Origin: a virus
Lineage: Duplodnaviria; Heunggongvirae; Uroviricota; Caudoviricetes
Direction: 5' to 3' (one strand)
IMG/VR virus record: IMGVR_UViG_2541047123_000027
Length of the DNA: 5,819 bases
Of the stretch, positions 1 to 2,693 are shown one piece after another (position 1 is the first letter of the stretch; each line of letters starts with the position of its first letter). The notes beneath the pieces were generated by a model that did not search any database, was not told where the DNA came from, and saw only the letters and a program-made list of their open reading frames with translations. The translations under genes were made by a program, and so were the position numbers.

Positions 1-422
1 AGCTGAATCAGCAGGCGGACGGATGCCGGGTTACGGTCACCCTGTGAGGTGGTCTGCAACAGTGACTGCACCCCGAAGGTGACCCGCAGGCGGTCAATGT
101 TCGCGGACGTAATGGTGCGCGTCACCGGCTTTGCTTTCGTCACTTCCACGCCCAGTGCGGTTTCCGCCCCGGAGGACTCAAAGCCTTCAGGTGGTGTCTG
201 CTCCTGCTCCCCGGCGCGCCAGACCGCTGTCACACCATGTATCACAGGATTACCGTCCGTGTCCGTCAGCGGGGTTTTGTTCACCAGGATACTCTGCAGC
301 CCCTTCACCGGACCTTCAATCGGCCCTTCACCAATGGCGTCAATCACGCTCATCATCTGCGTGGACTTAAGATTGTCCTTTGCCTCTACCGGCGTGTGCG
401 CCTTGCCGCCCCCTTTACCCAC
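1..422 (-). CDS. J: Host-specificity / central tail fibre protein J (lambda gpJ-like), N-terminal ~140 codons; gene runs off the window start
   Basis: Minus-strand translation from GTG at 422..420 gives (M)GKGGGKAHTPVEAKDNLKSTQMMSVIDAIGEGPIEGPVKGLQSILVNKTPLTDTDGNPV...EQEQTPPEGFESSG...TRTITSANIDRLRVTFGVQSLLQTTSQGDRNP..., open to position 1. This matches the lambda gpJ N-terminus (MGKGSSKGHTPREAKDNLKSTQLLSVIDAISEGPIEGPV...) as I recall it. G-rich Shine-Dalgarno GGAGAGGGGG sits 5 nt upstream. Missing from the ORF track because it has a GTG start and no stop inside the window. Confidence 0.9.
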   Translation of the reverse strand, partial: MGKGGGKAHTPVEAKDNLKSTQMMSVIDAIGEGPIEGPVKGLQSILVNKTPLTDTDGNPVIHGVTAVWRAGEQEQTPPEGFESSGAETALGVEVTKAKPVTRTITSANIDRLRVTFGVQSLLQTTSQGDRNPASVRLLIQ

Positions 423-427
423 TGTGT

Positions 428-437
428 CCCCCTCTCC
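428..437 (-). promoter_or_regulatory. Shine-Dalgarno sequence for J
   Basis: Minus-strand GGAGAGGGGG followed by a 5-nt spacer (ACACA) and GTG at 422. Confidence 0.55.
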
Positions 438-464
438 TGTCTGATGTCTGAATCTGTTTATGCC

Positions 465-495
465 AGAAAACAACAGGCACCCCGGAGGGTGCCTG
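465..495 (-). terminator. Rho-independent terminator-like hairpin, minus-strand orientation, between the small ORF and J
   Basis: Minus strand reads CAGGCACCC-TCCG-GGGTGCCTG (perfect 9-bp GC-rich stem at 474..482/487..495, 4-nt loop) followed directly by TTGTTTTCT. It begins right after the TGA of the 39-codon ORF. Confidence 0.6.
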
Positions 496-497
496 TG

Positions 498-617
498 TCA
501 TGACGGAATAAAATTTCTGAAACTCTTCACATTTCCGGCAATTGCCTGTAGCCGCAATAATGACGCTGCATTACTTTTTTGATGCCTGAAAAATAACTCC
601 ATAACGTTAATCTTCAT
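498..617 (-). CDS. Hypothetical small protein (39 aa) in the I–J spacer; candidate moron ORF, coding status unproven
   Basis: ATG 617..615 to TGA 500..498 on the minus strand: MKINVMELFFRHQKSNAASLLRLQAIAGNVKSFRNFIPS. GGGAGA lies 5 nt upstream of the ATG, and the stop is followed at once by the 465..495 hairpin with U-tract. Local GC is clearly lower than the flanking tail genes. I recognise no homolog; too short for the supplied ORF track. Confidence 0.25.
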   Translation of the reverse strand: MKINVMELFFRHQKSNAASLLRLQAIAGNVKSFRNFIPS

Positions 618-625
618 CGTTCTCT

Positions 626-658
626 CCCGCAGCTCCGCTAACTCTGCGGGATTTTTTT
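626..658 (+). terminator. Terminator-like hairpin with T7 tract on the plus strand (A-tract upstream on the minus strand); orientation opposite to the tail operon
   Basis: Plus strand CCCGCAG (626..632), 11-nt loop, CTGCGGG (644..650), then A TTTTTTT (652..658). It lies immediately downstream of the gpI-homologous reading frame stop (665..663, minus strand). Confidence 0.4.
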
Positions 659-753
659 ATTTTCATCCCCGCCCGATAACCACCACTTTCCCGTCTCCGC
701 CCTCATCACGGGTGCTGATGTCCTGGGATATCCGTCGTGAACCAACCAGCATT

Positions 754-1341
754 TCACCATAAGGCACCGGCACTCGGGTTCCCCTGGGCAATCATGTTAT
801 CCAGTGACGAAAAATACGTGTTCTGTTTACCGTTATCCGTCGCCCTGTACTCCGGTGTTTTTGCCTTCGGTGCCAGCATCTGGGCCACACCGCCCAGTAT
901 CATGCTGGCACCCAGTGAGAACAGCATCGTGGTGGCAGTCAGCCCTCCGGCACTCAGGGCTGCGCCCCACAACGCCATCGTTGCGCCGGCGGTGAAGAAA
1001 GAGCCCACGATGGCTGCTGCCCCCAGCACAATCTGCAGTCCGCCCTTTCCGGCTCCGGCCAGTCGCGGCACAATATGGATGACCGCCCCCTCACCCAGAG
1101 GTTCGTGAAGACGGGCGTACACCGCCTCCGGTGCCGTGTCCTCACCGCGAATACGTATCTGGTACCAGCCTTCGTTCATCTGACGGCGGAATCCCGGCAT
1201 CTGCATCGACAGGGCACGGATGGCTTCCGCTGCCGTGTTCACGTACAGGCTGAGGCGGCGGCCAAATCGTTGCAAATCCCCGTGAAGGCAGATGCGTGCC
1301 AGTGGCGGTGACGCCAGACAGAATGCGTTCGTCGTTGCCAT
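754..1341 (-). CDS. I: Tail assembly protein I (lambda gpI-like), 195-aa frame; C-terminus displaced by a +1 frameshift, with the homologous reading frame continuing to 663
   Basis: ORF-track protein MATTNAFCLASPPLARICLHGDLQRFGRRL...GAVIHIVPRLAGA...QIVLGAAAIVGSFFTAGATMALWGAA...FSLGASMILGGVAQMLAPKAKTP...DNGKQNTYFSSLDNMIAQGN matches lambda gpI (223 aa) and then ends abnormally as PSAGALW*. The frame one position over continues RVPVPYGEMLVGSRRISQDISTRDEGGDGKVVVIGRG* to a TGA at 665..663, matching the gpI C-terminus (…VLPVLYGEM…VVVIGR). Confidence 0.85.
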   Translation of the reverse strand: MATTNAFCLASPPLARICLHGDLQRFGRRLSLYVNTAAEAIRALSMQMPGFRRQMNEGWYQIRIRGEDTAPEAVYARLHEPLGEGAVIHIVPRLAGAGKGGLQIVLGAAAIVGSFFTAGATMALWGAALSAGGLTATTMLFSLGASMILGGVAQMLAPKAKTPEYRATDNGKQNTYFSSLDNMIAQGNPSAGALW

Positions 1342-1992: not shown

Positions 1993-2693
1993 TTACTGCG
2001 AAAGTTTATTGATGGAAAGGAAACCGCCAAAATTAGCCACCATGCCGCGCATCTCACACCCGCGCATGCACTTGCTGCATCTGTCCTTACGGATATCCGT
2101 GGTGGGGTTGTCGAACTCATCCGCCACCGCAGGACCGTTATACCCGCATTCATCTCCCCGGTAATCCCACATACAGGTATTCGCCAGCATGATGCGACCG
2201 GGAAACAGCGCTCCGTCCGTCTCCGTCGGTGTTGCCAGCACAAACGAGGCTGTCATGGCCGTCAGCTCTGACATCTGCTCCACCACCCAGCGGTCGCTCA
2301 AGCTCCTGCTCAGGGTCCGCCTCAGGATTGCCTGCCACAAAATTCACCGCATCCAAGAAAACGGGCATACACCCGGCGGCGGACCACCGTGGCCCCCACC
2401 AGGCTCTGCAGGTCCTCCGCCATTCCGGTGACCAGACCAAACAGATTCGACACCGTCAGCGACGGTCTGGCACTGCTGCCCTTCCCGTTCATCTCAAAGC
2501 CACTGCCGTCAATCGGGTATGCCTGATATTCACGCCCCTGCCAGGTCACCGGCACCCCTTTTTCATTCAGCTCATTGCAGAAAAAATACCGCTCACCGCC
2601 CTGCGCCGTCAGGTCGATTTCCCAGAGTACCACCCGCGGTGACTGCTCTGATTTAACCGACTCGTTCAGACTTTCTTCGTGAATATCCTGCAT
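1993..2693 (-). pseudogene. L: Minor tail protein L (lambda gpL-like) split across three reading frames by two +1 frameshifts about 60 nt apart
   Basis: Frame 1 (2693..2322): MQDIHEESLNESVKSEQSPRVVLWEIDLTAQGGERYFFCNE...VVRRRVYARFL then GCGEFCGRQS*. Frame 2 (part of 2440..2150) carries the next homologous block FLDAVNFVAGNPEADPEQE. Frame 3 (2340..1993) carries the remainder SDRWVVEQMSELTAMTASFVLATPTETDGALFPGRIMLANTCMWDYRGDECGY...CSKCMRGC...FGGFLSINKLSQ*. Concatenated, the three blocks reconstruct a ~232-aa gpL including the C-terminal Cys cluster. Shift points are near 2355..2362 (TTTT run) and 2296..2306. Confidence 0.8.

Follow-up and report, generated by a model that had tools for sequence, protein, structure and literature searches.

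We found that the spacer between tail genes I and J in this stretch of phage DNA carries the gene for a published small RNA (sRNA), EcOnc22, of which EcOnc23 and EcOnc24 are identical copies. We consider it very likely that this cassette is an autonomous Hfq-dependent sRNA gene that lies antisense to the late tail operon, is expressed from the prophage, and probably acts in trans through a conserved core. The original prediction had read the same DNA on the operon strand, as a moron-like cassette encoding a 39-codon protein between two terminator-like hairpins.

The window (the whole 5,819-nt stretch analyzed, from IMG/VR record IMGVR_UViG_2541047123_000027) contains, on its minus strand, a lambdoid tail operon in the order H', M, L, K, I, spacer, J'. 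Alignment with phage VT1-Sakai and with prophage Sp15 of E. coli O157:H7 Sakai gave 97-99% identity, and the J translation matches the J proteins of both. By this identity, the tail operon is of the Sp15/VT1-Sakai type, from a Shiga-toxin-type prophage. The features discussed below are as follows:

1-422, minus strand: 5' part of J (host-specificity/tail-tip gene), with a GTG start at 422..420 and a translation opening MGKGGGKAHTPVEAK.
428-437, minus strand: J ribosome-binding site GGAGAGGGGG, read from the sequence.
466-496, minus strand: J-proximal hairpin (hairpin 2), ACAGGCACCC-TCCG-GGGTGCCTGT followed by TGTTTTC (stem-loop 496..473), from the terminator scan.
498-617, minus strand: 39-codon open reading frame (ORF) encoding exactly the peptide originally given; a non-conserved frame opposite the sRNA and its promoter.
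516-531, plus strand: CRP-like box TCTGA-AACTCT-TCACA, a putative regulatory site upstream of the sRNA promoter.
556-561, plus strand: predicted -10 box, AATAAT in the window and TATAAT in most relatives.
568 or 575, plus strand: candidate sRNA 5' ends, from the -10 rule and by transfer from PasB, respectively, uncertain by roughly 7-15 nt.
568-658, plus strand: sRNA gene of the EcOnc22/23/24 = PasB family, assigned from spacer identity, probe polarity and synteny with PasB.
596-615, plus strand: conserved single-stranded core ACUCCAUAACGUUAAUCUUC, a candidate seed on the basis of its conservation.
625-658, plus strand: sRNA intrinsic terminator (stem CCCGCAG/CTGCGGG, 11-nt loop, U7), from the terminator scan and folding.
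652-658, plus strand: U-run of the terminator, giving the sRNA 3' end.
663-1341, minus strand: tail assembly gene I, with the stop of its reading frame at 665..663.

The spacer runs from the I stop to the J GTG (423-662) and is 240 nt long, compared to 60 nt in lambda (15445-15504) and 71 nt in Gifsy-2, and its GC content drops to 0.39-0.46 across 451-650 versus 0.56-0.68 in the flanking tail genes. These values bear out the observation from which the original prediction started, that the gap is about 240 nt and low in GC where lambda has a few tens of nucleotides. Alignment of the junction with lambda and Gifsy-2 likewise revealed about 180 nt of additional DNA between the I stop and the J-proximal hairpin, as had been anticipated; this DNA is missing in lambda and Gifsy-2, where I and J adjoin closely. 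The window spacer agrees with the I–J spacers of the Sakai prophages Sp15, Sp14 and Sp11, which are identical to one another, at 239 of 240 positions. It is also 100% identical over 238 nt to VT1-Sakai, and 100% identical to the spacer of a representative phage (NC_049945).

The window differs from the Sakai chromosome in one spacer position and in frameshifts within genes I and L. At position 424, 2 nt before the GTG of J, lies the sole spacer difference from all Sakai copies, which read TCTG where the window reads TGTG. Gene I is split by a 1-bp insertion near position 773 into ORFs at 754..1341 and 663..791; the inserted base is an extra G (GAACCCGAGTGCC here, GAACCCGA-TGCC in Sakai Sp15 and VT1-Sakai), reflecting decay of the prophage or an error in the sequence. 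Gene L (~1993-2693, minus strand) carries two single-T insertions relative to VT1-Sakai, at ~2301 and ~2356 (55 nt apart), and appears as two ORFs (1993..2340 and 2322..2693). The insertions in I and L are the only indels in 3.6 kb, besides which there are 110 substitutions clustered at both ends of the region. Given the frameshifts in I and L, the prophage in the window may be decaying.

The identification of the sRNA rests on published mapping of Hfq-binding sites. Among the orphan Hfq-binding sites of E. coli O157:H7 Sakai, Tree et al (2014; Mol Cell, PMC4104026) reported EcOnc22 in Sp15, EcOnc23 in Sp14 and EcOnc24 in Sp11, which are mutual homologues on the strand opposite the tail genes (their Table S2) and give a northern band of ~85 nt that is destabilized in Δhfq cells (PMC4104026). 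The evidence in 2014 consisted of an Hfq peak (Hfq-CRAC) and the northern blot, without ends, promoter or targets (PMC4104026), and a 2021 review listed the targets of EcOnc22/23/24 as unknown. We found that in NC_002695.2 all three sites are I–J gaps. The 2014 coordinates refer to an earlier version of the genome, and their mapping onto NC_002695.2 needs correction; calibration on AgvB1, whose sequence is published and which lies at 1.94 Mb, gave an offset of ~+141 nt. After this correction, the EcOnc22 Hfq peak falls at approximately 584-652 of the window. Uncorrected, the coordinates would put the peak on the J-proximal hairpin, a placement ruled out by the AgvB1 offset together with the probe sequence.

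The northern probe for EcOnc22/23/24 (GGGAGAGAACGATGAAGATTAAC...) settles the strand. Its first 23 nt match the minus strand of the window exactly at 628..606, thereby covering the sequence originally read as a Shine-Dalgarno motif plus ATG. Since a probe hybridizes to its complement, the RNA seen on the blot comes from the plus strand and is antisense to the operon. The EcOnc22/23/24 RNAs and the window cassette thus agree in locus, in spacer sequence (239/240) and in encoding an Hfq-bound RNA of ~85 nt, and the Hfq binding and Hfq-dependent stability published for the near-identical Sakai sequence would be expected to hold for the window RNA.

A second published sRNA maps to the same site. 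PasB, from prophage PP6 of EPEC E2348/69, is an 83-nt RNA encoded on the minus strand of NC_011601 (1466343->1466261; Pearl Mizrahi et al, 2021; Sci Adv, PMC8550237, Table S6) and is Hfq-dependent, with log2 fold changes of -6.8 and -2.4 in Δhfq cells (PMC8550237). The PasB locus is a 240-nt gap between I (end 1466255) and J (start 1466496), with PasB antisense to both, and its coordinates transferred onto the window correspond to 575-657 on the plus strand. PasB and the window RNA are identical at 62 of 85 aligned positions, and share the CCCGCAG/CTGCGGG-U7 terminator and a core of the form ACUCC..UU(A/G)AUCUUC; the PasB probe spans the homologous terminator hairpin. The two RNAs are therefore alike in their antisense position within a 240-nt I–J gap, a 3' end 5-6 nt from the I stop, terminator stem, core, approximate length and Hfq dependence, and differ in their 5' halves and terminator loops. 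On this sequence and synteny evidence, the window sRNA is a diverged member of the PasB family, and EcOnc22/23/24 in EHEC and PasB in EPEC form one family at one syntenic site. The PasB row of Table S6 has no EHEC homologue, whereas the PasA and PasD1 rows have one (PMC8550237), and we found no statement in the literature that links EcOnc22 to PasB explicitly; the link is a minor new point of this analysis.

We next describe the anatomy of the cassette as read from the plus strand. A terminator scan identified two terminator-like sites in 300-900, compared to 0.4 expected from shuffled sequences: hairpin 1 on the plus strand and hairpin 2 on the minus. Hairpin 1, next to gene I, has stems at 626-632 and 644-650 followed by seven T residues (652-658) on the plus strand, which form an A-tract in the operon sense. 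The hairpin preceded by an A-tract that had been described on the operon strand is thus present, but it is the plus-strand sRNA terminator read backwards rather than a terminator of the operon. From 568 to 658, the predicted RNA consists of a U-rich stretch, an A-rich stretch, the core ACUCC...UUAAUCUUC (596-615) and the terminator (625-658), and this RNA, hairpin 1 included, has a folding z-score of -4.1. Among 36 unique sRNA bodies, the core ACUCCAUAACGUUAAUCUUC is the most conserved block outside the terminator. The terminator itself combines an invariant stem with a variable loop in homologues obtained by BLAST; in the IMG/VR set, the invariance of the stem is in part a product of the search pattern, in which the stem was fixed. 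An RNAalifold analysis of the 36 unique bodies revealed no conserved 5' stem and no covariation, with the invariant terminator stem as the only conserved structure.

The length predicted for the RNA, 91 nt in the window and 90-99 nt in the family as a whole, compares with measured lengths of ~85 nt (northern blot) and 83 nt (PasB); this gap may reflect the uncertain 5' end, or alternatively trimming of the RNA after transcription. The predicted start near 568 coincides with a conserved GCGUUA motif (GCAUUA in the window). Upstream of it, a -10 box is found at a fixed offset, as TATAAT in 23 variants, AATAAT in 11 and TATCAT in 7. A sigma-70 scan returned no passing site on either strand and no good -35 element, in agreement with the earlier failure to identify a convincing sigma-70 promoter; the plus strand nonetheless carries the conserved -10 box, and the predicted promoter had been missed because it lies on the other strand. 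We rejected TTCACA as a -35 element, as it would be separated from the -10 box by a 24-nt spacer.

The CRP-like box is the only match in the window to TGTGA-N6-TCACA with at most one mismatch, although 16% of shuffled sequences also contain such a match. In 45 of 54 unique variants, its half-sites do not change whereas the 6 nt between them do, and its center lies a fixed 32.5 nt from the -10 box. If transcription starts 7 nt past the -10 box, the center would be near -44.5; the usual class II CRP position is -41.5, i.e. 2-3 bp nearer the start. We propose CRP control of the sRNA tentatively, as an idea somewhat more likely to fail than to hold. As circumstantial support, PasB is higher in the non-activating condition, in which the CRP-repressed sRNA Spot 42 (Spf) is ~5-fold lower (PMC8550237).

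These elements suggest how the cassette would operate. The sRNA would be transcribed antisense to the late tail operon, starting near 568 from a weak sigma-70 promoter (-10 box AATAAT at 556-561, no good -35) and ending at the 625-658 terminator. The promoter would probably be aided by an activator bound at TCTGA-N6-TCACA (516-531), for which CRP is the most likely candidate. The RNA is made in uninduced lysogens, where it is abundant on Hfq while late genes are silent (PMC4104026, PMC8550237). It probably acts in trans on host and accessory mRNAs through the core at 596-615, as the chimeras of PasB in RIL-seq data suggest: PasB ranks 15th by number of RIL-seq interactions, which include a chimera with the pasA-E2348C_0689 intergenic RNA of prophage PP2, and all Pas sRNAs contact both core and accessory targets (PMC8550237). 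The seed of PasB has been proposed to immediately precede the terminator (Zhu, Shabalina & Storz, 2026 preprint).

The cassette is widespread and variable. We found the spacer in 147 phage records, almost all of them Stx-converting phages, and in 802 of 5426 complete E. coli genomes, at a median of three and a maximum of nine places per genome. An I-like C-terminus lies upstream of the cassette in 91 of 94 viral-contig copies. Spacer lengths fall at 233-251, ~342 and ~426 nt and extend up to 914 nt, and the J ribosome-binding site GGAGAGGGGG is kept in most spacers of ~240 nt.

Several variants depart from the window arrangement. In IMGVR_UViG_2728369607_000007 (1-1230), a 914-nt I–J gap accommodates 3-4 diverged PasB-like cassettes as an array, each with its own TGTGA-N6-TCAGA box, -10 box and terminator; the last cassette of the array is nearly identical to that of the window. 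Two further loci (L062 and L067) carry two copies of the cassette ~220 nt apart. In the Stx2a-converting phage Stx2_EH2201 (LC567829; 541-1391), the gap holds sodC (Cu/Zn superoxide dismutase) antisense to the tail operon. There, a PasB-like body and terminator still adjoin I, and the sodC cassette takes the place of the predicted promoter of the sRNA, its CRP-like box and the J-proximal hairpin. Phage vB_EcoS-569R3 (541-882) represents the common ~342-nt spacer class (28 IMG/VR copies), which retains the sRNA and CRP-like box and then diverges; ahead of J it has an operon-sense hairpin unlike that of the window (AAAACCCCGGTATCTGCTGATACCGGGGTTT) and a 77-aa ORF annotated as 'tail fiber protein'. 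The conserved predicted promoter architecture with its CRP-like box, the tandem cassette arrays and the sodC variant are minor new findings of this analysis.

The position of the cassette raises the alternative that the RNA acts mainly in cis, through RNase III processing of, or transcriptional interference with, the late I–J transcript, with trans targets being secondary. The RNA is fully complementary to ~90 nt of that transcript, its antisense position directly past the I stop is the one kept in the 91 of 94 copies, the cassette sits between two otherwise tightly linked genes, and convergence with the Q-antiterminated late operon is unavoidable. We nevertheless judge a mainly cis-acting role unlikely. 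In uninduced cultures, in which its cis target would be silent, the RNA is found in abundance on Hfq, and both the RIL-seq rank of PasB and the core and accessory contacts of the Pas sRNAs point to partners elsewhere. Further, the cassette has been multiplied or partly replaced by sodC, which suggests that it is cargo rather than a regulator of the operon. Such action in cis would tune expression of J (the tail tip) or silence leaky tail transcription in lysogens, and is not exclusive of action in trans.

All but excluded, in our view, is the peptide-encoding moron first proposed, in which a 39-aa protein would be translated from GGGAGA-ATG (629-615) on the operon strand, between two operon-sense terminators and by late readthrough. 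The elements on which this reading was built do exist: the ORF and its peptide, the Shine-Dalgarno-like GGGAGA, and a downstream hairpin with a U-tract are all present, and a 'hypothetical protein' has been assigned to the gap in two phage records, with differing coordinates and frames. The ORF does not stand out from chance, however, as the first 1200 nt of the window hold 17 ORFs of 25 aa or more. The upstream hairpin is a plus-strand terminator, and GGGAGA is the complement of the sRNA terminator stem (its G-run) rather than a true Shine-Dalgarno sequence. The RNA that was detected is plus-strand. The E. coli RefSeq records, among the matches listed, carry no annotation under the spacer match.

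Comparison of homologues also argues against a protein. Of 63 unique copies assembled from BLAST hits and 80 IMG/VR loci, ~25 have ACG in place of the homologous ATG or lack it through deletion; in copies that keep the ATG, the ORF spans 12, 17, 18, 22, 30-32, 39, 41 or 54 codons. Unrelated C-termini arise by frameshifts past about codon 10, and only MKINV.ELF persists, in the first ~9 codons, as the complement of the conserved sRNA core. Close ungapped variants show 3 synonymous and 17 nonsynonymous changes, one of them nonsense, and the distribution of changes over codon positions (4/10/6) reveals no third-position bias. Searches of Pfam and PHROGs with the 39-aa peptide, and with a 40-aa ORF on the opposite strand (460..582, plus), returned nothing meaningful. 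Indels and stops in homologues had been named in the original prediction as evidence that would refute it, and these were observed, together with lost starts. The ORF ends with a TGA 75 nt upstream of the J GTG, in the J frame; this had been treated as coincidence, and we agree, since spacer lengths vary among copies. From these sequence comparisons and the strand evidence, the 39-codon ORF is a chance frame, a by-product of the sRNA and not a gene. What stands of the moron proposal is its broad sense, an autonomous extra cassette with its own terminator; a protein gene on the operon strand does not.

The strong hairpin with a U-tract reported just after the ORF stop was confirmed as a minus-strand, terminator-like element: hairpin 2 folds with -23.1 kcal/mol (z = -5.6). 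In lambda, a hairpin before the J ribosome-binding site (AACCGCC-TGCG-GGCGGTT-TTGTCATTT) aligns with hairpin 2, as does a hairpin with a T-run in Gifsy-2 (junction alignment of lambda, Gifsy-2 and E2348/69). In both phages this GC-rich hairpin and T-run lie ~15-20 nt upstream of the J start. Because lambda and Gifsy-2 each carry one, hairpin 2 is ancestral to the I–J junction and lies outside the insert. It could serve as a terminator that Q-modified polymerase reads through, or as an mRNA-stabilizing element. That these shared hairpins mean the spacer holds no gene at all, with both hairpins serving the late operon structurally or in termination and the added DNA being neutral filler, is scarcely credible given the published northern and Hfq-CRAC signals, the RIL-seq data for the E2348/69 homologue, and block-wise conservation in which the core, the -10 box and the palindromic box persist amid variable neighboring bases.

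We also compared the preferred reading, an antisense Hfq-dependent sRNA gene, with other phage-encoded RNAs and morons. A search of Rfam 15 with the whole window (E <= 1) returned no match, which excludes AgvB, AsxR, STnc100, DicF and similar RNAs. The anti-sRNAs AgvB and AsxR (RF02702/RF02703) have a conserved ~42-nt 3' domain that is absent from the window, a terminator (GCCCGAACCCAYTCGGGC) that differs in sequence from that of the window sRNA, and a location at the PR' moron site rather than in the I–J gap. AgvB/AsxR and HnrS (EcOnc10-12) nonetheless resemble the window sRNA in being short, Hfq-binding and prophage-encoded, in having their own terminators, and in occurring as several copies per genome by way of several prophages. 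HnrS itself, a plausible candidate at first because its up to nine copies recall the maximum of nine places per genome seen for the spacer, was rejected as the identity of the window RNA as it maps to other late-region sites of Sp9/10/12, and svsR was rejected as it is located at the 3' end of cI. Classical lambdoid morons (bor and lom of lambda; sodC of Gifsy-2 and Stx phages) share with the window cassette the extra, lower-GC DNA between conserved late genes, expression from the prophage and their own transcription signals, which in the window cassette are a clear terminator and a predicted promoter; they make a protein, whereas the product of the window cassette is a non-coding RNA.

The main value of these findings is a correction: the "small protein moron" is the mirror image of a published sRNA gene, whose terminator and pairing core, read on the wrong strand, mimic an A-tract hairpin, a Shine-Dalgarno sequence, an ATG and a short ORF. 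The CRP-like box offers a possible and testable reason for the higher level of PasB in the non-activating medium, and mutagenesis of this sRNA, which is abundant and multi-copy in Shiga-toxin phages, can start from the parts mapped here. A broader reading, which we regard as a long shot, is that the I–J gap of Stx-type lambdoid phages is a landing pad for antisense, CRP-dependent cargo that responds to carbon status, with the sRNA playing a dual role. If this were true, the sRNA would retune host mRNAs in trans in lysogens when cAMP-CRP is active, and after induction would pair with the late I–J transcript and modulate production of the receptor-binding protein J, while tandem arrays of diverged cassettes (up to 3-4 per contig) would diversify its seeds.
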